DNA of 10,651 nucleotides from the NCBI GenBank assembly GCA_043821645.1, contig JBDRCO010000062.1, positions 1 to 10,651 of the forward strand, read 5' to 3'. This DNA comes from Pseudomonadota bacterium (GTDB lineage: Bacteria; Myxococcota; JACRCW01; JAFGSX01). A program made the translations under genes and the position numbers. The notes under the pieces are model-generated. The model saw only the letters and a list, made by a program, of their open reading frames with translations, searched no databases and was not told the DNA's origin. Of the stretch, positions 1 to 10,009 are shown one piece after another (the stretch's first letter is position 1; the number at the start of each line of letters is the position of its first letter).

Positions 1-2803
1 TCGAGACATTGAGCCCGTAGGGAGCCGTGCCCGGCCTGTCCAGGTGTGAGCCGAGGAGCTGGAAAGCCAGAGAGATGGCCTCATCCAGGCCGAGGGCGCC
101 CGTCGCCACCTTCCGCTCGATGAACCTGGTCGCCATGGTGGAGATGGCATTGACAGAGCGGCCAGCCAGGTTGGTGCCGTCACCCGCCGCACCGTAATTG
201 ACCACCAGCGTCAGCTCGTCGCTGGAGGTGAAGGTCTGCGGCAGGTTGAGGGCCATGTTCTTGTAGGTGGAGGCCGTGCCAAAGCCTCGAATGAGCACGG
301 GTCCGTCGTGAGTGAATGGGATCTGCAAGCTGAAGCTGCCATCCTGGGCCGTCATGCTGTCGAGCACGGCGCCGCGGACGCCATCCGTGAAGTCGAGGGC
401 CTCGACGGTCACGTCAGACACAGGGGTGTCGAGGAACACGCGGCCACCGATGGTGCCGTCCGGGATGGTGATGACGTTGACGGTCACGCTGGCCTGTCGG
501 GCGTTGCCGAAAAGGTCCATGGCTGCGGCGGTAATGGTGAGGGGTCCTTCGGGGAGCCCGGTCGCGTCGAGCTGGCCTATGAGGTGGCCGGAGGTCCCGG
601 AGACCGACGAGGAGCGGCCCGTGATCCAGTCCTGGCCCCCCGCGAACTGCAGCGAGTACACGCCCTCGTTGTCCGAGGCGGTCACCGAGATGGTGACGGC
701 GCCGGCCACGTCGCTGCCACTCGTGGGTGTCACGAAGGAGATGGCCGGTGGAGCCGCATCCACGGCAACCGTCGGGTCGAAGGCCGAAAAAAGCTCCGAG
801 GTGTCCAGGGCCAGGGCGTCGAAGAAGCCACCGGCCACCGTGAAGTTCGAGGGCCTCAGCGCCGTCGGGTTGGCGGTCACCGAGGCGTCAGGAAGCGGCA
901 TGCTGGCGAGCCAGCGTGAGATCTCACGCGCCAGCTCGATGCGGAGGGTGTTGGTGACGACCTGGACAGCCTGGTTGGGCGTGGCGTGGATGGGGGCTCC
1001 GAACTCGTCGCGTCCGCTCAGGACGCCGGACGACAGGTCACGCTCGAGCAACTTGAGGACGTCTAGGGAGGGCAGCGCGGTCCTGGCGAGGCCCTGGGAT
1101 GTGGCGGCCGAGGCCCCCCAGCGAGACAGGCCGATGTGCATCAGACCCATGAAGATGCTTTTTGGCGGGTCTGACGACGAGCCCGTGGACAGGTCGGAGA
1201 CAGAAGTGCGGGCGATGTCGACGCCGTCGGGATTGGTGGTCCGCTCCAGGTGTTTTCCGAAGAGCTGGTAGGCGTGATTCATGGCCGTGCCGAGGTCCTG
1301 ACCGCCGGCCTGGAGAACGAGGCCAAGGTGCGTGGCCAGGGTGGTCAGGGCATTGACCGAGATGTCCTGATAAATGGCGCCGCTTTGGCCGTCGTAGTCG
1401 AGGAAGGTGACCAGCTCGTCGCCGGCCGTGAAGTACACGGGCTGGCCCGTGGCCAGGTCCAGGTAGCCGGACGAGGTCCCGAAGGCCCGGATGAGGATGG
1501 GCCCGGCGTGCTCGGGCATGGGGAGCGAGAAGTTCCCGTCCGTGCTGGCCTGGGTTGCGAGCACGGTCCCTCGGACGCCGTCCGTGAAGTCGAGAACCTC
1601 GACGGTGGCGTGCAGGACCGGGGTGTCCAGGGAAACCCGACCGTAGAGCGTGCCAGGGACGTAGGGCTCCAGGGTGAAGGTGGCGGTGGAGGTGGTCGCG
1701 TTGCCGTAGATGTCTCTGGCCTCGACAGCGACGGTCAGGGGGCCGGACGGGAGGCTGTTGCCATCGACGGTGGCCCTGACCTCGCGGGTGGTGCCGTTGT
1801 GCGACTCCTGCCTGCTCGTCAGGAAGTCCTGGCCGTCCAGGAAGACGAGGGACTCGACCCCCGAAGGATCGTCGGCGCTGACCACGACGTCGAAGGTGCC
1901 GCGCACGGTGGAGGTGGGGGAGGGCGAGAGGAAGGAGATGGTGGGCCCGGCCAGGTCCAGCTCGGTACCCTCGACGCTGAACAGGGGATCCACGGTGGTG
2001 CTCAGGCACAGCATCAGGTCCTGGGTGTCGGCGGCGGTCACGCTGGTGCGGTTGACGTCGCCTTGCAGGAACTCCAGCAGGCCCCTCACGAAGCCCGTCT
2101 CGGAGAAGCGGAAGGTGCTGGCAGTGAACTCGTAGCCTTCGAGGATGATGCGGCCCGTGGTGCCCACCCCGTCGAACTTCATGTTGCTCAGCAGGTCTTC
2201 AGAGAAGCCCTCGACCAGGGTGAGCGGCGTGAAGCGGACGCCCGGCGTGTAGCCGAGGTTCTCGGAGATGACAGCGGCCTGGGCGGAGAGCCCGCCGAGC
2301 AGGATGCCGGCGAGGACGTCGCCGGTCAGCTCGAGGTCCTGCTCGCGCTCGATGGACGGGTCGACAGGGGAGGCCCTGGTGACGTCCAGGTCCGGGGAGC
2401 TGCAGGTCAGGAAGCTGTCGAGGTCGATGGTGGCCTTGGTGAAGGCGTCCTTCAGGGACAGGGAATAGACGAGGGTCAGGTACTGCATCTCGATGTTCAC
2501 GAGATGGGTCCAGGGAGTGATGGCAAAGGTCATCGACGTGCCGACCTCGGGGAGGTAGGCGCACAGCTCGAAGTCCTCGAAGCGCACCAGGGAACCGGTC
2601 ACGAGGTCGGAGAAGAAGCCGCCACTGGCGCAGGCCAGGGCGCTGGTCCGCAGCAGCGGCAGGGAGACGCGGACCCGGCCCTGCTCGTCGGCCTCGGCGG
2701 AGGCGAGAAGCTCTCCGCGGGTGGCGTCGAGGCCGACGCTGTAGATGGACACCGTGGCCTTGCTCACCGGCGAGCCCATGGAGACGAGGCCGGTCAGCTC
2801 GGA
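1..2803 (-). repeat. Intragenic tandem protein modules (383 aa, 399 aa and a partial third copy)
   Basis: Module starts 2803, 1654 and 457 are in frame, 1149 and 1197 nt apart. The two Ig-like segments are also 1197 nt apart. Modules 2 and 3 share LDTPV, LDFTDGVRG, GP(I/V)LIR(A/G)FGT, DEL, SVNA and A(Y/F)QL(F/L)GxHL. Confidence 0.9.
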
Positions 2804-2881
2804 CCTGGCCAGGTCACCTATGGGCGGGGGAGGGCAGCCGACGAGGGCGACGATGGCAAGGCCAAGAGGCAGGCGACGCAT
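1..2881 (-). CDS. Large repeat lipoprotein with Ig-like domains, 3' end outside the window (>960 aa)
   Basis: Manual translation from ATG at 2881 (SD-like AAGGTGG upstream) is open to position 1. N-terminus MRRLPLGLAIVALVGC has a lipobox LVG-C16 followed by PPPP. Three homologous modules start near 2803 (SELTGLVSMGSPVSKATV), 1654 (GTLYGRVSLDTPVLHATVEVLDFTDGVRG) and 457 (GTIGGRVFLDTPVSDVTVEALDFTDGVRG). Ig-like segments DLAGPTISFLSP...DIYGN (~1957-1670) and DAAPPAISFVTP...DLFGN (~760-470). Third codon positions are strongly G/C. The ORF track omits it, presumably because no stop lies in the window. Confidence 0.93.
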   Translation of the reverse strand, partial: MRRLPLGLAIVALVGCPPPPIGDLARSELTGLVSMGSPVSKATVSIYSVGLDATRGELLASAEADEQGRVRVSLPLLRTSALACASGGFFSDLVTGSLVRFEDFELCAYLPEVGTSMTFAITPWTHLVNIEMQYLTLVYSLSLKDAFTKATIDLDSFLTCSSPDLDVTRASPVDPSIEREQDLELTGDVLAGILLGGLSAQAAVISENLGYTPGVRFTPLTLVEGFSEDLLSNMKFDGVGTTGRIILEGYEFTASTFRFSETGFVRGLLEFLQGDVNRTSVTAADTQDLMLCLSTTVDPLFSVEGTELDLAGPTISFLSPSPTSTVRGTFDVVVSADDPSGVESLVFLDGQDFLTSRQESHNGTTREVRATVDGNSLPSGPLTVAVEARDIYGNATTSTATFTLEPYVPGTLYGRVSLDTPVLHATVEVLDFTDGVRGTVLATQASTDGNFSLPMPEHAGPILIRAFGTSSGYLDLATGQPVYFTAGDELVTFLDYDGQSGAIYQDISVNALTTLATHLGLVLQAGGQDLGTAMNHAYQLFGKHLERTTNPDGVDIARTSVSDLSTGSSSDPPKSIFMGLMHIGLSRWGASAATSQGLARTALPSLDVLKLLERDLSSGVLSGRDEFGAPIHATPNQAVQVVTNTLRIELAREISRWLASMPLPDASVTANPTALRPSNFTVAGGFFDALALDTSELFSAFDPTVAVDAAPPAISFVTPTSGSDVAGAVTISVTASDNEGVYSLQFAGGQDWITGRSSSVSGTSGHLIGQLDATGLPEGPLTITAAAMDLFGNARQASVTVNVITIPDGTIGGRVFLDTPVSDVTVEALDFTDGVRGAVLDSMTAQDGSFSLQIPFTHDGPVLIRGFGTASTYKNMALNLPQTFTSSDELTLVVNYGAAGDGTNLAGRSVNAISTMATRFIERKVATGALGLDEAISLAFQLLGSHLDRPGTAPYGLNVS

Positions 2882-2928: not shown

Positions 2929-3159
2929 CTACTCGACGCCCTCGGCCTTCTTGAGGGCGCGGCCGGCGTAGAGGACCATCCGGCGGATGGCCTCGGGCCT
3001 GAGGATGCTGACCTGCTCGCGCTCGGACAGGAGGTTGGCGTACCAGTCCACGTACTCCATGATACCGAGCGAGAGCCGGAGGTGGACGGGCTCGGTCAGG
3101 TCGTAGGGAGTCGCTTCCGACCTCGATGGTGCTTTCTTCGTGGTTTTGCGCGCTGCCAT
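2929..3159 (-). CDS. Small ribbon-helix-helix (CopG/Arc/MetJ-like) DNA-binding protein, 76 aa
   Basis: ATG at 3159 has GGAAAGG upstream, preferred over the track's start at 3222. MAARKTTKK basic tail, alternating strand VHLRLS, helix IMEYVDWYANLL, then LRPEAIRRMV, which matches the RHH (S)RSEAIR helix B pattern. Confidence 0.7.
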   Translation of the reverse strand: MAARKTTKKAPSRSEATPYDLTEPVHLRLSLGIMEYVDWYANLLSEREQVSILRPEAIRRMVLYAGRALKKAEGVE

Positions 3160-3176
3160 GGCCGTGGCCTTTCCGG

Positions 3177-3205
3177 TTGCGTTTAGTAGCATATGGTACC
3201 AGAAT
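3177..3205 (+). promoter_or_regulatory. Candidate sigma70-type promoter for the beta-barrel gene
   Basis: TTGCGT (3177-3182), 17-nt spacer, CAGAAT (3200-3205), in the AT-richer divergent intergenic region. A minus-strand TATGCT (3193-3188) could serve the RHH gene. Confidence 0.35.
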
Positions 3206-3238
3206 GTTACACAGGACACCACAGGGGATCAAGCACAG

Positions 3239-3922
3239 ATGGATGCTTCGCTGGCTGCACGGCTGTTTTTCCCCGTCCTCCTGCTGGCTCCCGGTCCCCT
3301 GCTTGGCGACGGAGGGGAGCTGGTGGTGAGGCCGATCCTCGGGGGTGAGGCAGCCTTCTTCGACTACCAGCGCGATGGGCTCAAGACCCTGGCGGGGACC
3401 CGGCAGCCCAGCAGCGGCATGGGGCGCTTCGGCGTGGCGCTGGGCTACGGTCTCATGAACGACCTGGAGCTGGGCCTGGGGGCCAGCCTGGGACTGACCG
3501 GAAGCCAGGTGCTGCGGTCGGTGGAGCTGGAGGGCTTTTCCGGGGACCTGTACGTGGACGTGCTCGACGTGTCGGTGCCGGTGACGCTTGGCTACCAGCT
3601 CAACTTCGGACACGAGGTGAGCGCCAGCGTCCAGGCTCAGGTGGGGGTGGCGTATCTCGGCTGGAACGAGCTGGCCCTGGTGGATCCCGGGAGGCCGGAC
3701 AGTGCCGGGAACTTTGCCCGTCTGCCCGTGGCCACGGTCAGGAAGGACCTGGTCGGGTTCGTGGCGGGTGCTGCAGTCTGGGTCGACTGGCGACCACTCG
3801 ACTGGTTCTCGCTCAGCCTGGGGCCGTATGGAGCGTTGAGGATGGCGGGGGAGACGCGGGTCATCTCGGCGGGGGTGTGCTTGCAGCCGGCGTTTGCGTT
3901 CGGGGTGGGGCCTTCGATCTGA
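3239..3922 (+). CDS. Putative outer-membrane beta-barrel protein (small, roughly 8-stranded), 227 aa
   Basis: ATG at 3239 (AGGGGA upstream) avoids overlap with the RHH gene. Hydrophobic N-terminus (LAARLFFPVLLLAP). Many amphipathic Gly/aromatic strands with short turns: RFGVALGYGLMNDLELGLGASL, VSVPVTLGYQLNF, SVQAQVGVAY, FVAGAAVWVDWRPLDWFSLSLGPY, SAGVCLQPAFAF. Confidence 0.75.
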   Translation: MDASLAARLFFPVLLLAPGPLLGDGGELVVRPILGGEAAFFDYQRDGLKTLAGTRQPSSGMGRFGVALGYGLMNDLELGLGASLGLTGSQVLRSVELEGFSGDLYVDVLDVSVPVTLGYQLNFGHEVSASVQAQVGVAYLGWNELALVDPGRPDSAGNFARLPVATVRKDLVGFVAGAAVWVDWRPLDWFSLSLGPYGALRMAGETRVISAGVCLQPAFAFGVGPSI

Positions 3923-4004
3923 GGCAAGTGGCATGTATTTCTATGAACACGACCTGGGAGTACTGTTCAGATTGGCGTTCTGAATCAACGGGGAGGGGAT
4001 GCAC

Positions 4005-4376
4005 ATGCTGTCACGCGTACTGGTTCCTCTTGCACACCTTCTTGCGGGCTGGATGCTCCTGTTGACGGGCTGCGAGGTCTCCTCCGACCTCGTGGCTCGC
4101 AAGCAGGCCGAGATGGACAAGGGCAAGGAGATCGCGAAGCAGCAGGAGCTGGCAGCGCAGCAGCCGATTCGCGATTTCCTGGCCAAGAAACTGGGCATGA
4201 CCGGGGAGGTGGCCGGCAAGCTCGACATCACGGTCATCGACGAGTGGGCCAGCGCCAGGGATGACAAGGGGATGAAGTTCATCTGCAAGAAGGTGCAGGG
4301 CGAATGGACCCTGTTGAGTGCTGGCACGAAGGCTGACCTTCCGGAAGGGGCGCCGTGGGGGCTTGCGGTGGAATGA
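4005..4376 (+). CDS. Small lipoprotein of unknown function, 123 aa
   Basis: GGGAGGGG SD spaced correctly for ATG 4005; ATG 3999 abuts the SD. Lipobox LTG-C, then a charged helix (RKQAEMDKGKEIAKQQE) and a small alpha/beta domain (DEWASA...FICKKVQGEWTLLSAGT). Confidence 0.8.
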   Translation: MLSRVLVPLAHLLAGWMLLLTGCEVSSDLVARKQAEMDKGKEIAKQQELAAQQPIRDFLAKKLGMTGEVAGKLDITVIDEWASARDDKGMKFICKKVQGEWTLLSAGTKADLPEGAPWGLAVE

Positions 4377-4543: not shown

Positions 4544-6559
4544 TCAATTCTCCGGAGCGTTGGAGACAACGACATCAGGGAACAGCTCGCCCCCATCCGG
4601 GGCTGTCCGGGTGGCGTCTTGCAGGGTCGTTACGTCACCGAAGGTCAGGTCGCGTGAAGCCTGTAACTCGATGAGTGTTCTCCCAGGAGCCTCTGCCTTG
4701 AGCTGGGTGAGTTTCTGAACCAGGTTCTTCATGAAGACCGGATCGCGGACCTGAGCTCTCTTGATGGGGGGATGCCCGGCCGCATGGATGGTGCCCGGTG
4801 AGGCACCCGCGGCAACCGCAGTTGATGTTGCCCCGGCGATGACAACACTCAGGTCTCCGAAAACGGTGGCTCGCGGTTCCTCGATGCCAAACTTGCTGGG
4901 GGAAGCAAGAAGGGCCAGCAGGCCCTTGCCCGCGACCTTGCGCACGATGCCGGCCTTTTCATGCCCCACGGTGGCACTTGCCGGGCCTCCGGTATCTGGC
5001 CCGGCCTGCATGCTGCTGCCCGCTGTCAGCTTCTCCACAGGGAAGGTGCCGACCGGGGCTACTCCACCGATGCTCGGTGCGGCGATGTTCACACAAACCG
5101 GGCCAGGATCTGTCCCGGCGAGAAGCGGCAGGCCATGCACCAGACCAAAGCTGGGGGGTGCATCGGTGGATCTTCTCAGGAGCTTGAAGTTGCCGTACTC
5201 CGCCTGGCCAGCCGAGTACATGATCTCGGAGACCGTGCGGTAGGGCAGATCCTCGTCGAGGGCGAGCAGGATGATGCCCTTGAATACTCGCGCCGGGTTT
5301 TCCGCGGCGTCCTGCTTTTCTCTTTCGGCCTGCCTGCTCAGGAGCGCGTGAAGCTGCGTGACGAAGTATCCGTCGACGCCATCCCGCTTGGCAGTAACCG
5401 GGAAGAACCCATCCTGCAGCTCTCCGACCATGGTGATGGTCCTCGTGCCCTCGCTGCCGGGTGGGCTGGATCCCACGAACTGCACAGCTTTCCTGGTCGC
5501 CACCACGATGGGCTCGTTCAGGTCGCAGACGAGCTGTGAACCCGAGGTACCCAGGTTCACCCCGGTCGATAGCAGCAGCCTGGCGGGACCGCTGGCGAGG
5601 TTGCTCAGCGCACGGCTTTGCTGCCAGCACAGGAGCACAAGTCCGGCGGTCGCTGCGAAGGTCAGGAGGTTCACGAGGGCGACAGCAGGGGCTGGCCTGA
5701 GCATCTGGGCCCGGGCCGCCGGATCTGCGCGGCGGAGAGTCCAGGCAAGCAGTGCGTAACCGACGACGACGACAGCCACAGCGGCCAGGGCCAGGTAGCC
5801 TCGGACTTCCAGGTGGTGGCCGAACAGCGCGATCTGGGAAGCCTGGGCTGCCAGCGTCAGTCGCTGGGCCTCACCCGCCGCCTGAAGCAGGTACAGGCCT
5901 GCAAGACCCGAGAGCGGAGCCAGGGCGATCTGGGACGAGGCAAGAGAGGCGGGGCGAGGGGTGCCTGCACCTGCCTGCTCGCCCGAGCCGGTCCGGGGGC
6001 CACCACGGAAGCCCACCATGGCTGCTCCGGAGAGCAGCACGAGCGCCGCTGACAGGGAGGGTATCTCCCAGGAACCATCGAGCTTGAACCAGCCCCAGAG
6101 CCAGAGGGCCGCGGCCAGCAGGCCAAGGACGAGCCAGGCCGAGGGGGCCCGGCGCGATCCGCCAGCTTGCGGTTCGCCGGCAGAAGTGGCGCAGCCGAGA
6201 GCAAGCGCTGCGACGTTCGATCCGAGCAGTCCAAGACCGAGCTTTGCCATCCACATGCCGTGCATGAGGAGCACAAGCGAGGTGAGCTGATCCTGAGGTG
6301 CTCCTGCAATGGCTGCTCGCGCCTCGTACAGAAGTGCAAGCACGACCCCCAGGCTGGCCAGAAGCGGCAGGCGGGTGGCAAGTCCACTCGCGGAGTTGAG
6401 GACCTTGCCCTGACGGCCGGAGACGAGAGCAAGGACAACTGCAGCGACGGTCGCCGCCATGATGGCCCAGAGACCCCAATCTTCAGGGCTCGGAGTGCCT
6501 TGAAGGGCAAGCCCTGCCACGACCACGACACCGAGCGGTGCAAGCCAGCACAGGCGCAT
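4544..6559 (-). CDS. Polytopic inner-membrane protein with degenerate MotA/TolQ/ExbB-like segments and two C-terminal ExbD/TolR-type periplasmic domains (AglS-like and AglQ-like), 671 aa
   Basis: ATG 6559 with SD AGGGGGA. About 9 hydrophobic segments in aa 1-312. ExbD-type signature IILLALDEDLPYRTVSEIMYSAGQAEYGNFKL (aa 429-460). Second signature IELQASRDLTFGDVTTLQDATR...GELFPDVVVS (aa 630-666). Confidence 0.8.
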   Translation of the reverse strand: MRLCWLAPLGVVVVAGLALQGTPSPEDWGLWAIMAATVAAVVLALVSGRQGKVLNSASGLATRLPLLASLGVVLALLYEARAAIAGAPQDQLTSLVLLMHGMWMAKLGLGLLGSNVAALALGCATSAGEPQAGGSRRAPSAWLVLGLLAAALWLWGWFKLDGSWEIPSLSAALVLLSGAAMVGFRGGPRTGSGEQAGAGTPRPASLASSQIALAPLSGLAGLYLLQAAGEAQRLTLAAQASQIALFGHHLEVRGYLALAAVAVVVVGYALLAWTLRRADPAARAQMLRPAPAVALVNLLTFAATAGLVLLCWQQSRALSNLASGPARLLLSTGVNLGTSGSQLVCDLNEPIVVATRKAVQFVGSSPPGSEGTRTITMVGELQDGFFPVTAKRDGVDGYFVTQLHALLSRQAEREKQDAAENPARVFKGIILLALDEDLPYRTVSEIMYSAGQAEYGNFKLLRRSTDAPPSFGLVHGLPLLAGTDPGPVCVNIAAPSIGGVAPVGTFPVEKLTAGSSMQAGPDTGGPASATVGHEKAGIVRKVAGKGLLALLASPSKFGIEEPRATVFGDLSVVIAGATSTAVAAGASPGTIHAAGHPPIKRAQVRDPVFMKNLVQKLTQLKAEAPGRTLIELQASRDLTFGDVTTLQDATRTAPDGGELFPDVVVSNAPEN

Positions 6560-6592
6560 GGCCGTCCCCCTGCGAACGATGGATGGGGGGGG

Positions 6593-6601: not shown

Positions 6602-6699
6602 GGGACCCGTTGTTGGCGGAGGAAGATGAAACAGCCTGTCTTTACCGCGAGTCGCGATCAGTGGATCTGCAACAGCGGGTACTTCCGAGTTGACCGCGC

Positions 6700-6708
6700 T
6701 GGTATACT
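6700..6708 (+). promoter_or_regulatory. Candidate extended -10 promoter (TG-G-TATACT) for the SH3-like gene
   Basis: TGGTATACT at 6700-6708, 37 nt upstream of GTG 6746. No good -35 seen. Confidence 0.4.
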
Positions 6709-6745
6709 CCGCGTGTCCATCACGTCCGCAACCTGGGGGGGTGCC

Positions 6746-7009
6746 GTGGCAGCACAGCCTCGCTCCGTCGTCGTGGCCAGCGTCCTGGCCGCAGTTGTTC
6801 TGGTCACGTCTGGCCGGGCCCTTGCCGTCGAGGAGGGGAAGCAGGCCGAGGTGGCTCAGGCCTCGAGCCTGTGGGTGGGGGATGGCAAGCCTGGCATCCC
6901 GGTGAAGCCTGGTGACGTCGTCACGGTGCTCAAGATCCGGAACGGGCTGGCGCGGGTCAAGCGGGCCAGCGACGGGGTCGTGGGGGATGTCCCGGAAACC
7001 GGGACATGA
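6746..7009 (+). CDS. Small secreted SH3-like (SH3b) domain protein, 87 aa, possibly truncated
   Basis: 3' part of track ORF 6167..7009, using an in-frame GTG at 6746 after a G-run. Signal peptide VVVASVLAAVVLVTSGRALA with an A-x-A cleavage site. Then VKPGDVVTVLKIRNGLARVKRASDGVVGDVPE, matching the bacterial SH3 pattern GxxVxVL..NGWxxV...DGxxGWV. Confidence 0.6.
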   Translation: MAAQPRSVVVASVLAAVVLVTSGRALAVEEGKQAEVAQASSLWVGDGKPGIPVKPGDVVTVLKIRNGLARVKRASDGVVGDVPETGT

Positions 7010-7248
7010 TGCTGACTCTGACCTGGGCTGTCTGGGTCGGCACGAGGCCTGGCGTCGGTCAGGCCGCCTCGACCTGGCGCTCGTCGGAGGCGGGAGCCGC
7101 CAGTGGGTCAGACTTCCGGACACCGCCGTAACAACCCGAGCCCTGCGCCCACGGTGGCAACCCGCTGTGGCTGGCACCTCGACGGGGTCACGCCCGTCTG
7201 AACCGCCAAGAGGTATCTGGATGATGCCCGGGAGGTCGGCCGCGCAGG

Positions 7249-8979
7249 TCAGGGACGCTGCGGCGACGCACTTGCCGGACGCACCCGGCGCAGTGCGTCC
7301 TCGAGATCCGCGCGGTCGAAGGGGCGCACCAGCGCGCTCGCCACGCTCAGCTCCTGGTAGGCGTCGCGGTGCTGCTGCGCGTGGTGGCCGCTCATGGCCA
7401 AGAGCGGCACCGGTGCCGCGCCGCGCTCGCGCTCGGCGGCGCGAATGGCGCGCATCGCAGCAATGCCGTCCATGCCTGGCATCTGGATATCCATCAGCAC
7501 CACGTCGGGTTCCTCGGCCTGGCAGCGCCGCACGCCCTCGTCGCCGCTGCTCGCCAGCAGCACCTGGTGGCCAAGCCTGATTAGCATGTGCCGCGCCAGA
7601 TCCTGGTTGACCGCGCTGTCATCGACCAGCAGCACGCGCAGAGGCGCGCTCATGGGTTCGAGGTCGCCCGCGCTGGCATGCGGGGCGGCAAAGGGCAGCT
7701 CGAGCCGGAAGCTGCAGCCGCGGCCGAGCTCACCCTGCACGTCGATGCTGCCGCCCATACACAGCGCGAGCTGACGCGCGATGTAGAGCCCCAGCCCCGC
7801 GCCCTCCTGCGGCCGCGCCAGCGAACCGTCGAGCTGGGTGAAGCTGTCAAAGATGCGCTGCCGGTCCGACGGGGAGATGCCGAGGCCGGTGTCGCTGACC
7901 GTGAACAGACAGCCGAGGGACGAGGCCCGGCTCGCGGCCGGGGCCGCGCGCAGCACCACCTCGCCGCGCGCGGTGAACTTGACCGCGTTGCCGGCCAGGT
8001 TGAGCAGGATCTGGAGCAGCCGTCCCCCGTCACCGTGCACCCGCGGCGGCAGTGCCGCGTCGAGCTCGCAGCGGAGCGCCAACCCCTTGGCGGCACAACC
8101 TGGCGCGATCGCGGCGGCCACCTCGCGCAGCACGTCGCCAGGCGCGAAGTCGGCGGGGCGGATGCTGAAGTGCCCGCTCTGCAGCGCCGAGAGGTCGAGC
8201 AGGTCGTCGATCAGCTCGCCGAGCCGCTTGCCCTGCTGCCGCGCCTGGCCGATCAGCGCCCGCTGCTCCGCGCTCAGCTCGCTGTCTTCGAGCAGGGCGC
8301 TGCTGGCGACCATGGCATGCAGGGGGGTGCGCAGCTCGTGGCTGATGTTTGCCAGGAACTGCGTCTTGGCCTGGTTGGCGGCCTGCAGCCGGCGCAGCGC
8401 CAGCACCCGGGCCTGCTCGTAGAAGTAGGCGAACACGAACACGCTCGCGGCGGAGCTCAGCCAGGTCAGGAAGGCGTCCGCGGGGCGTTCGGCCGGCGGC
8501 ACCAGGTCGGGGAAGGCGACGCCGGCGCGCGCCGCGAGCTCGAAGCCCAGGGGGAGCGCGATGCTGGCGACGGCCCAGAGCAGGCCGCCGCGTCCCAGCA
8601 GAAAGAAAGGGGCGACGATGGTGATGAAGTAGGGCGCCACGTTGGTCAGCCGCAGGCCGCCAGTGAACAGGGTGGCTGCGCCAACCGAGAGGGTGGCGAT
8701 CATCAAGCTGAGGTGGCCGGCGCTGTGCAGCCGTCTATCCAGCGAGAGCTTGACCAGCACGGCGGCCGAACACAGCGAGCTGAGCAGGAACATCCCCGCG
8801 GTCCAGGGCGAGCCATAACCCAGGTGGACCAGGGCCCAGGAGGTGGTGAGCAGCAGGGTGCAGCAGATGTAGCCCACCAGCACGCGTGCGCGCAGGAGCT
8901 CGACCGCGTCTGCGGCCTGGACGGAGCGGGAGCCAAACAGCTCCCGGAAAAACGCGCGGCTGCGGTCAAGCGTGGCCAT
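7249..8979 (-). CDS. Membrane-bound hybrid sensor histidine kinase (TM region, HisKA, HATPase_c, REC), 576 aa
   Basis: About 6 N-terminal TM helices. H-box FLANISHELRTPL (His codon 8340-8338), N-box LLQILLNLAGNAVKFT, G1 VSDTGLGI, F-box IFDSFTQ, G2 GAGLGL. Receiver domain VLLVDD...DVVLMDIQMPGMDG (phospho-Asp codon 7491-7489). Confidence 0.96.
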   Translation of the reverse strand: MATLDRSRAFFRELFGSRSVQAADAVELLRARVLVGYICCTLLLTTSWALVHLGYGSPWTAGMFLLSSLCSAAVLVKLSLDRRLHSAGHLSLMIATLSVGAATLFTGGLRLTNVAPYFITIVAPFFLLGRGGLLWAVASIALPLGFELAARAGVAFPDLVPPAERPADAFLTWLSSAASVFVFAYFYEQARVLALRRLQAANQAKTQFLANISHELRTPLHAMVASSALLEDSELSAEQRALIGQARQQGKRLGELIDDLLDLSALQSGHFSIRPADFAPGDVLREVAAAIAPGCAAKGLALRCELDAALPPRVHGDGGRLLQILLNLAGNAVKFTARGEVVLRAAPAASRASSLGCLFTVSDTGLGISPSDRQRIFDSFTQLDGSLARPQEGAGLGLYIARQLALCMGGSIDVQGELGRGCSFRLELPFAAPHASAGDLEPMSAPLRVLLVDDSAVNQDLARHMLIRLGHQVLLASSGDEGVRRCQAEEPDVVLMDIQMPGMDGIAAMRAIRAAERERGAAPVPLLAMSGHHAQQHRDAYQELSVASALVRPFDRADLEDALRRVRPASASPQRP

Positions 8980-9334
8980 GGATAGAGCCCGTGCTCTCCT
9001 GCCTCACCCCGAGACAAGGCCCGGCAGCATAGGAGATCCGGGCTCTGCCTGCAGGGCTTTTTACGGTGGTCGGGGTGCCTGTCAGGCGCAGGATTGTGGG
9101 GCGTGGACCGCGCGGCCTCAACCCGAGCCCGGTCCCGGCTGCCGCGCTCACACGCAGCGCTCCGGCACAGGAGCAAGCAGGGACCGAGGCCGATCTGCGG
9201 TTCGTTTTTGTCTGCAGCAGCCATCCATCGCTGCTCCGATGACGAGGCGGGGGAGCGGGCTGCGTCCCGAGGCAGGCAGTGTGAATTTTGACCAGCGTGC
9301 CACGTCCACCGGACGCGACCAGAATGGGAGCCAC

Positions 9335-10009
9335 ATGCCACGAACCACATTTCCGTCCCCACTCTTGGGCTGTGCCTCCGTCGTCAGGGCCCTGGCGATC
9401 GGCTTGAGCCTGATCCCGCTCTGGGGGTCTGTGTTGCGCGCCCAGGCAGACGCATCGTCCGAGTGCCGGACAGGCAGCGACGGCCGTGTCGCATGCGGCT
9501 ACGCCTGCCGCATGGGCAGCGACGGGCGCATGGCCTGCGCTGACACACCTGACGGCACCTGCGCCATGGGCAGCGACGGCCAGGTCGTGTGCACCGCCCT
9601 GCGCGGCGCCCGCTTCGCCCCGGTGCCCGGCGTTCGCGCCGAATGCAGGATGGGCAGCGATGGCCATGTGGTGTGCGGATTCACGTGCAGGATGGGCAGC
9701 GACGGCCACGTCGCATGTGCCGACACCCCCAACGGGTCCTGCGCCATGGGCAGCGACGGCCGTGCAGTGTGCTCGCGTCTCGCCGCTTCCCAGGCTGCGG
9801 GCAATCCCGAAGCGCGCAGCGAGTGCAAGATGGGCAGCGACGGTCACGTGGTGTGCGGCTTTGCATGCAAGATGGGCAGCGACGGCCATGTCGCGTGCGC
9901 CAACACGCCCGACGGAACCTGCGCCATGGGCAGCGATGGACACGTCGTCTGCACGCGGCTGGTGGTCCCGGTCCGGCAAGGACCTCAGCGACGACGCCCG
10001 CGGCGGTGA
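9335..10009 (+). CDS. Secreted cysteine-rich repeat protein (9 x CxxGSDGxxxC in three 60-aa units), 224 aa
   Basis: ATG 9335 with SD GGGAG, preferred over the track's 8972 start, which overlaps the kinase. Signal-like N-terminus ending VLRAQA. Three units of the form ECxxGSDGxVxCG(Y/F)xCxMGSDGxxACA(D/N)TP(D/N)GxCAMGSDGxxVC. Arg-rich tail QRRRPRR. Confidence 0.88.
   Translation: MPRTTFPSPLLGCASVVRALAIGLSLIPLWGSVLRAQADASSECRTGSDGRVACGYACRMGSDGRMACADTPDGTCAMGSDGQVVCTALRGARFAPVPGVRAECRMGSDGHVVCGFTCRMGSDGHVACADTPNGSCAMGSDGRAVCSRLAASQAAGNPEARSECKMGSDGHVVCGFACKMGSDGHVACANTPDGTCAMGSDGHVVCTRLVVPVRQGPQRRRPRR
9461..9955 (+). repeat. Nested coding repeat: nine GGCAGCGA(C/T)GG motifs with an exact 180-nt higher-order period
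   Basis: Motif starts 9473, 9515, 9569, 9653, 9695, 9749, 9833, 9875, 9929. Spacings 42, 54, 84, 42, 54, 84, 42, 54. Variation is mostly at third codon positions. Confidence 0.95.

Follow-up and report, generated by a model that had tools for sequence, protein, structure and literature searches.

A predicted membrane-anchored chain joining AglS-type and AglQ-type TolR domains in a Myxococcota genome

The window analysed here is a stretch of 10,651 bases that makes up an entire contig (JBDRCO010000062.1, C62) of a Myxococcota genome (GCA_043821645.1; 7.07 Mb, 140 contigs, 94.7% complete), and its subject is an open reading frame on the reverse strand (ORF 4544-6559, 671 amino acids (aa)) whose product carries two different TolR/ExbD-type periplasmic domains, one of AglS type (S) and one of AglQ type (Q), in a single chain behind a polytopic membrane region. 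An earlier interpretation made from the letters alone (the sequence-only reading) had regarded this gene as a single-chain TolQ/TolR-type motor akin to AglRQS of Myxococcus xanthus, in which AglR is TolQ-like and AglQ and AglS are TolR-like. The S and Q domains do stand in one chain behind extra helices, while the term motor is doubtful given that an Asn (Asn298) replaces the Asp of the TolR helix. We tentatively favour the view that the protein may be a non-conducting, membrane-tethered S-Q module that serves as an anchor, decoy or brake rather than as a motor.

The last helix of the membrane region and the domain behind it (domain 1; aa ~290-462) are identified by homology as a complete AglS-type TolR. 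In a phmmer search of 1.84 billion representative proteins, aa 273-460 were aligned to aa 29-212 of the 220-aa TolR P0040, and the Pfam-positive TolR homologue P0007 was matched at E 3.7e-16. The S-type gene of the same genome, the third of an R-Q-S trio on contig C37, shares 39% identity over 127 aa with domain 1 (aa 334-460; blastp), and the genome search placed its best match at C37:187058-187309 (E 8e-20; 48% identity over aa 377-460). The motifs KRDG..GYF and PYR..SE.MY.AGQAE.GNF are retained, and Pfam ExbD (PF02472) was recorded at aa 400-462 (E 1.6e-4; 22.2 bits, cut-off 25.4).

Where the S-type helix has its conserved Asp, which we take to be the proton-binding site, the chain has Asn298 (nucleotides (nt) 5666-5668). 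The alignment comprised the genome's own S-type gene, 16 short phmmer matches (184-220 aa) and five excerpts of fused relatives; an 'LMD' helix was found in the own S-type gene and 15 of the 16 short matches, i.e., in the 16 of 17 stand-alone S-types that could be aligned there, P0028 being gapped across this region. The fused relatives P0033, P0043, and P0055 have a helix region with no aligned Asp, and the last helix of P0041 failed to align. The equivalent proton-site residues are D23 in TolR, D25 in ExbD, and D32 in MotB, and replacing the Asp by Asn abolishes the function of MotB, ExbD, and TolR.

Domain 2 (aa 488-667) is, as far as homology tells, an AglQ-type periplasmic domain. Its C-terminal part (aa 585-667) matched a 15-sequence profile of Q-type TolRs with hhalign (Prob 86-92%, E 8e-7 to 5e-6; reversed control E 0.4), a weak collinear match at aa 489-504 corresponds to 'VNIAAPSIGG', the counterpart of the motif that follows the Q-type helix, and the Q-type genes of the same genome are 35-38% identical over 52-54 aa (aa 613-666). 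Between these two matches lies a Gly/Ala/Pro-rich insertion of ~60 aa that contains the motif KVAGKGLLALLAS. Basic residues followed by (G/A)(I/L)L(A/G)(A/L)(L/M)(G/A), e.g., 'KGLLALLAS', recur in linkers, here at aa ~505-565 and in P0033 (~686), P0034 (~255), and P0091 (~721), and this motif stands directly ahead of TonB_C in two of those proteins. The proposal that two distinct ExbD/TolR-type domains, one AglS-like and one AglQ-like, follow the last helix is borne out by phmmer and blastp for domain 1 and by hhalign for domain 2.

The naming of the two domains follows from gene trios. Two members of the phylum, each with a 9-Mb genome in a single contig, have adjacent R-Q-S genes of 245/173/193 aa that were matched by the S-, Q-, and R-type profiles. 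This order and set of sizes fits aglR-aglQ-aglS (245/162/194 aa; Table 1 of PMC3169522), which makes domain 1 AglS-like and domain 2 AglQ-like. Within the chain S precedes Q, the opposite of the gene order, so the fusion is not a mere read-through from one gene into the next. A model based on AlphaFold and presented in PMC11761067 has five AglR with one AglQ-AglS heterodimer, the periplasmic parts of which form a plug. The same two subtypes, there modelled as a heterodimer, are present in ORF 4544-6559. It differs from AglRQS in being one chain instead of three genes, in its S-then-Q order, in the absence of the Q-type helix, in the replacement of the S-type Asp by Asn, in having no demonstrable AglR part, and in the absence of glt genes nearby. 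Compared with ordinary ExbD/TolR proteins, the likeness covers a basic stretch on the cytoplasmic side, a single helix, and a periplasmic domain with homology to Pfam-positive TolRs, whereas the norm of one helix and one domain per chain is exceeded by a second periplasmic domain of another subtype and by eight extra helices in front, and the conserved helix Asp is missing.

Chains with an S domain followed by a Q domain form a family in the protein libraries. The phmmer search returned 115 matches including the protein itself, and domain 1 is present in all 114 others; the best stretch fell within aa 273-538 in 113 of them and at aa 563-666 in P0114. About 21 of the 114 carry S then Q in one chain, a count from which rows where the Q profile touched only the TolR helix were set aside by eye. 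P0029, P0035, P0041, P0055, P0087, P0114, P0117, P0033, and others share the domain order of ORF 4544-6559, but most of them are lipoprotein-like or single-helix (several start with lipobox-like N-termini), and their N-termini are not detectably related to that of ORF 4544-6559. Ahead of the S domain, nine helices are found in P0033, six in P0041, and none or one in the rest; P0043, P0085, P0091, and P0103 have long multi-helix N-termini with a Q-like part below threshold. Three relatives end in a TonB_C-like domain (PF03544), namely P0033 (30.7 bits) and, both below the cut-off, P0091 and P0117; this end, typical of TonB/TolA-type transducers, is absent from ORF 4544-6559. Among 20 relatives scanned with Pfam, ExbD was found in 13, TonB_C in two, and MotA_ExbB in none, and of 16 additional tandems, nine had an ExbD match on either the S or the Q part. 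A single relative is named at its source ('biopolymer transport protein ExbD'); all others are unnamed metagenome proteins.

No full-length relative was detected among the 1.84 billion representatives or in one other genome of the family (82% complete). Within the phylum, a stand-alone S-type domain occurs in 307 of 401 sampled genomes, and no tandem S-Q was found in 401 and 301 sampled genomes (two queries); P0035, searched against the 301, gave a single match at E <= 1e-25, covering the S domain only. Species-representative genomes yielded no relative with alignments A3 and A4, and only a TonB_C match with P0033 as the query. A word-indexed protein search retrieved only the protein itself, whether queried with its sequence alone or with alignment A1, and a search of the PDB by sequence gave no match for the protein and five chance matches (E 0.4-4.5) for the profile. 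In a quick tree of 101 S domains, too poorly resolved to tell one origin of the fusions from several (9 of the 98 inner branches well supported), the tandems were scattered among stand-alone genes. A metagenome scan with A4 gave 15 loci, and those examined were ordinary R-Q-S trios and not fusions, as judged by translation for L094 and by separate Q-type ORFs for L091-L093, L095, L098-L100, L103, and L104. Candidate long open frames near S-type genes were likewise rejected as high-GC artefacts or ordinary stand-alone genes (four loci translated, five by tblastn); such high-GC open-frame artefacts do occur ahead of S-type genes elsewhere.

As we picture it, a fast-evolving anchor with some eight helices holds the protein in the inner membrane; it is followed by an entire AglS-type TolR (basic cytoplasmic loop, transmembrane helix, periplasmic domain), with an AglQ-type periplasmic domain covalently attached behind it. 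The S and Q domains, which are separate chains in AglRQS/TolQR-type motors and are predicted to form a heterodimer above the channel, may here fold against one another within the chain to give an intramolecular pseudo-heterodimer, and the tethered head could bind the targets of a motor's periplasmic head, i.e., peptidoglycan and/or a TonB/GltG-like partner. Its role would then be that of an envelope anchor, or else of a decoy or brake acting on the genuine motors, whose genes lie elsewhere in the genome. Since an Asn sits at the position of the proton-binding Asp and no TolQ/ExbB channel signature can be demonstrated in the other helices, the protein would probably neither conduct protons nor turn, and the recurrence of S-Q chains lacking a channel-like membrane part fits a periplasmic binding module that needs no pore.

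Several observations weigh against this proposal. The score of domain 1 lies under the Pfam ExbD cut-off, the clear score of domain 2 is limited to its C-terminal 83 aa, with the ~60-aa insertion in its first half, and a partner gene is absent nearby on the contig by Pfam scan. Weak-to-clear AglR-like helices in relatives (see below) leave room for a channel-related membrane part. The genome's own Q-type TolR genes (C37:186174-186608, C87:73681-74106, and C70:98694-99116; loci L006, L008, and L005) also have Asn ('PIMNL') at the helix Asp position, whereas the aligned Q-type genes from other genomes have Asp ('PYLDI'); in this genome only the S-type partner retains the Asp, so a pair with a single Asp may be usual for the lineage. 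Asn298 alone is no proof of inactivity, and the chain could pair with another subunit.

Such a pairing is the core of the alternative that stands up best, in which the protein would be a variant axle subunit whose S-type helix sits in an AglR/ExbB pentamer beside a free TolR that supplies the Asp, while the extra helices and the Q domain modify or localise the motor. Possible partners are encoded elsewhere in the genome (6 MotA/ExbB-family and 9 ExbD-family genes, R-Q-S trios included), stand-alone S-type TolRs can be aligned over their whole length with the helix and domain 1, and single-Asp pairs seem tolerated given that the own Q-types already lack the residue. We nevertheless consider this arrangement unlikely: it is the S-type helix, Asp-bearing in the 16 of 17 stand-alone S-types that aligned over it, that has the Asn, and together with the genome's Asn-bearing Q-types no Asp would remain; eight extra helices must also fit beside a closed pentamer, and a helix bundle of this kind is lacking in most S-Q relatives.

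ORF 4544-6559 is a real gene, coding from Met1, intact and constrained. Its single open frame, proposed in the sequence-only reading, was upheld by contigs of other public runs (two studies, of aquatic and groundwater metagenomes) that cover 4713-6175 piecewise at 95-100% identity with no stops or indels. One of these contigs (4977-5329) spans the S/Q junction and another (5357-5859) the junction between helix and S domain, and strain variants from the two studies, with 20, 14, and 1 substitutions, yield no stop; one RNA run had no contig on this stretch. A broken paralogue of the first 114 codons, which shares the start Met and is frameshifted between aa 42 and 60, is found on contig C77 (4451-4781; locus L027); its two parts are 55% (aa 1-42) and 49% (aa 60-114) identical to ORF 4544-6559 in two different frames. 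Identity by codon position 1/2/3 was 0.67/0.74/0.34 over 97 codons, the third positions being nearly saturated, a pattern that points to selection on the protein in this frame and to a coding N-terminal part. It rules out a start at Met287 with the 286 upstream codons as a high-GC open-frame artefact, a distinction that the GC content at third codon positions (GC3) is unable to make for the N-terminus and the codon-position comparison is able to make. The gene-caller version begins at Met34 (638 aa). A Shine-Dalgarno-like GGGGGA run ahead of the ATG may work as the ribosome site. The C77 fragment lies between a kinase-like ORF and another gene, and blastn of the window against C77 gave no match.

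GC3 of ORF 4544-6559 is 0.69-0.80 compared with 0.89-0.91 in the neighbours 7249-8979 and 2-2881, a difference that may point to a foreign source of the gene or to weak adaptation of its codons. Together with the broken copy of the 5' end, the low-complexity insertion in the Q domain, and the orphan status of the full-length protein, this would also suit a lineage-specific fusion that is functionless or in decay and turning into a pseudogene. Such decay is distinctly improbable when set against 671 open codons, variants from two studies free of stops and indels, core motifs kept in domain 1, protein-level constraint on the N-terminus, and the Shine-Dalgarno-like run at the start.

The first ~313 aa are polytopic and hydrophobic, and a hydropathy model gave nine helices, eight of them ahead of the S-type helix (aa 4-20, 28-48, 64-84, 93-125, 140-158, 166-184, 211-229, and 255-275). 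Lys and Arg number 13 in the 'in' loops and 3 in the 'out' loops, a bias that puts the two TolR-type domains on the periplasmic side. Loops joining the predicted helices are 7-26 aa long, so the cytoplasmic domain found between helix 1 and helix 2 of MotA/TolQ/ExbB proteins (PF01618; 5:2 rotary stators) is not present, and the channel-lining polar residues of these proteins are not recognisable. No non-self phmmer match covered aa 1-272, the N-terminal region matched nothing in Pfam or NCBIfam, and the ESM Atlas gave no usable match for aa 1-325.

The sequence-only reading had divided this region into two TolQ/ExbB-like units produced by internal duplication. Neither part of this proposal held: the profile similarity by which that reading had asked to be judged was missing, and local alignment of unit 1 with unit 2 was not significant (z 1.6-2.3; 24/300 and 8/300 shuffles reached the observed score). 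Pfam recorded no MotA_ExbB match in the ORF at E <= 1. With hhalign, a 30-sequence ExbB alignment gave Prob 0.1-0.5% and E 0.13-0.5, equal to reversed, shuffled, and kinase-helix controls, and a 43-sequence AglR-type alignment gave E 0.12 over a stretch that is the predicted cytoplasmic loop. In an HMMER ranking of the 40,924 six-frame ORFs of the genome, five ExbB genes and MotA held ranks 1-6, whereas ORF 4544-6559 came 48th (E 80). Adding the C77 fragment to the query brought no gain (E 0.04-0.05), and the N-terminus was not significantly similar to the multi-helix relatives (z 0.6-2.1; hhalign E 0.09). The best result was obtained for unit 1 against an AglR profile from which the cytoplasmic columns had been removed (the spliced profile; score 17.4, E 0.023, Prob 2.1%), above 25 of 25 shuffles (mean 11.5, max 14.8) and the reversed sequence (9.9). 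The alignment has the register proposed earlier (GLWAIMAAT/GGW.M, LPLLASLGVV/L.GLFGTV, AAIAGAPQDQL/AAVSGADPAKR), with the Thr of the AglR 'GT' motif replaced by Val in unit 1 and by Ala in P0033; HMMER on unit 1 gave 4.6 bits, i.e., noise. Unit 2 scored no better than shuffles (E 0.31). Likeness to MotA/TolQ/ExbB is marginal and confined to one three-helix unit in the same register, and for the N-terminal helices as a whole these profile comparisons do not place it demonstrably above chance.

Some relatives behave differently. P0033 (863 aa, metagenome/NCBI) has two AglR-type three-helix cores lacking the cytoplasmic domain, followed by a helix, the S domain, the Q domain, a Gly-rich linker, and TonB_C. 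It demonstrably carries what profile alignments identify as an AglR-type core minus the cytoplasmic domain: against the full AglR profile, hhalign found two collinear pieces, the N-terminal helix with 'EGG.FM' (E 2e-4) and helix 2-loop-helix 3 (E 2e-4), and against the spliced profile 95 columns were aligned (Prob 96.8%, E 3e-10; control scores 13-21). HMMER gave 22.1 bits (E 3e-4 at Z = 40,924). The spliced profile, a construct of our own, could favour such matches; the unspliced result agrees in direction. Internal duplication is true in P0033 (z 6.2) and P0041 (z 10.1), and P0041, P0043, and P0103 matched the spliced profile at E 1e-4 to 3e-3. With a profile built from the relatives' units, ranks 2 and 3 among the 40,924 ORFs went to the two AglR-type genes of the genome, and ORF 4544-6559 was left unmatched. 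Rank 1 was taken by an antisense frame of the kinase gene (window 7225-7581 (+), 15.3 bits), which indicates that Ala/Leu-rich high-GC frames easily mimic such helices.

A self-contained motor, with two TolQ-like units lacking the cytoplasmic domain around their own TolR helix and perhaps working as an oligomer, would draw on the register and shuffle result of unit 1, on an inferred topology compatible with two three-helix units, a linker helix, and a TolR helix, on the real AglR-type core of P0033, and on the ranking of AglR-type genes by the relatives' profile, but it is highly improbable in view of the non-significant Pfam, hhalign, and HMMER results for ORF 4544-6559, the failure of the relatives' profile to reach it, the unit 2 and duplication results, an N-terminus unlike that of the multi-helix relatives, and the changes of Asp to Asn298 and of the 'GT' Thr to Val; for this ORF a whole motor in one chain is unproven.

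Returning to the tethered S-Q module, its domains are of known kinds, while the S-Q single chain, with or without an AglR-like core or TonB_C, seems to be undescribed in the papers searched. The sequence-only reading knew of no description of the architecture; nothing in print was found, but the protein libraries hold the ~21 S-then-Q chains and several multi-helix versions. The literature search found no description of a TolQ-TolR, ExbB-ExbD, ExbD-TonB, or MotA-MotB fusion or of tandem ExbD, subscription journals and bioRxiv supplements lying outside its reach. The passages on Tol-Pal in PMC12204202 mention other fusions and not an S-Q chain.

All 5:2 motors share the question of how TolR/ExbD periplasmic domains pair, come unplugged, and take hold of the cell wall or of a TonB-like partner. 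The AglQ-AglS heterodimer is so far a model only, and a natural S-Q chain offers structural and binding work a 1:1 construct that already exists. P0033 unites homologues of motor subunits and of the TonB C-terminal domain in one polypeptide, and relatives with a shrunken AglR core or TonB_C suggest that motor pieces were re-used as non-rotating envelope parts. If ORF 4544-6559 does act as a brake or decoy, this would be a new mode of regulating such motors. A wider proposal, which we rate as doubtful, is that the protein and its relatives might be an undescribed group of 'single-chain stator derivatives' of AglRQS/TolQR-type 5:2 motors, in which the S-Q head would be one covalent pseudo-heterodimer, some members would keep shrunken AglR-like helices and TonB_C, the Asp would have been lost, and the head would be locked in an extended, cell-wall-engaged state as a static anchor or a dominant brake on gliding or Tol-like motors.

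Table 1. Positions of the described features on the 10,651-base window, with the evidence for each.
Feature	Position	Strand	Basis
Whole ORF, 671 aa plus stop	4544..6559	-	Open frame; start ATG at 6559
N-terminal membrane region, aa 1-289, eight predicted helices, no detectable family	5693..6559	-	Hydropathy, positive-inside count
Unit 1, aa 22-130: two helices, loop 'AAIAGAPQDQL', third helix	6170..6496	-	hhalign against AglR profile, marginal
Unit 2, aa 158-280	5720..6088	-	hhalign E 0.31, no better than shuffles
Last helix, aa 290-313, predicted counterpart of the S-type TolR transmembrane helix	5621..5692	-	Alignment with S-type TolRs
Domain 1, aa 334-462, AglS-type TolR/ExbD periplasmic domain by homology	5174..5560	-	Pfam, phmmer, blastp, alignment
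Domain 2, aa 488-667, AglQ-type TolR/ExbD periplasmic domain by homology; VNIAAPSIGG at start, ELFPDVVVS at end	4559..5098	-	hhalign, blastp
Insertion of ~60 aa in domain 2, aa ~505-565, Gly/Ala/Pro-rich	4865..5047	-	Alignment, motif scan; borders approximate
GGGGGA, Shine-Dalgarno-like run, 5 nt ahead of ATG	6565..6570	-	Read from sequence
Divergent neighbour, 127 aa, one helix, SH3_2	6626..7009	+	Pfam SH3_2 23.0 bits, cut-off 21.8
Hybrid histidine kinase/response regulator; the divergent gene lies between it and ORF 4544-6559	7249..8979	-	Pfam HisKA, HATPase_c, Response_reg
Convergent neighbour, 125 aa, lipobox LLTGC	3999..4376	+	Sequence
Likely outer-membrane barrel	3140..3922		Under Pfam cut-off
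Large immunoglobulin (Ig)-domain lipoprotein, runs off contig	2..2881	-	Big_7 Ig domains

The start codons of ORF 4544-6559 and of the SH3_2 gene are 66 nt apart, and with this divergent gene on one side and a convergent gene on the other, ORF 4544-6559 stands alone on its strand. The earlier remark that no tonB, tolA, or glt gene lies beside it agrees with the Pfam scan, which found no TonB, TolA, MotA/ExbB, glt-like, or further ExbD gene among the other ORFs of the 10.6-kb contig; an AglR (TolQ-like) gene is likewise absent beside it, with no MotA_ExbB match anywhere on C62. Rfam, tRNA, and tandem-repeat scans of the window returned nothing.

Two further proteins of the window have repeats of their own. 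A likely secreted protein at 9332-10009 (+), within ORF 8972-10009, contains ~12 Cys-rich repeats of the form C(R/K/A)MGSDG(H/R)V(V/A)C, with no Pfam family assigned and no tandem repeat at the DNA level according to a repeat finder. The Ig-domain lipoprotein at 2-2881 (-) is built of two long similar halves, each with a 'VE.LDFTDGVRG..L' segment.

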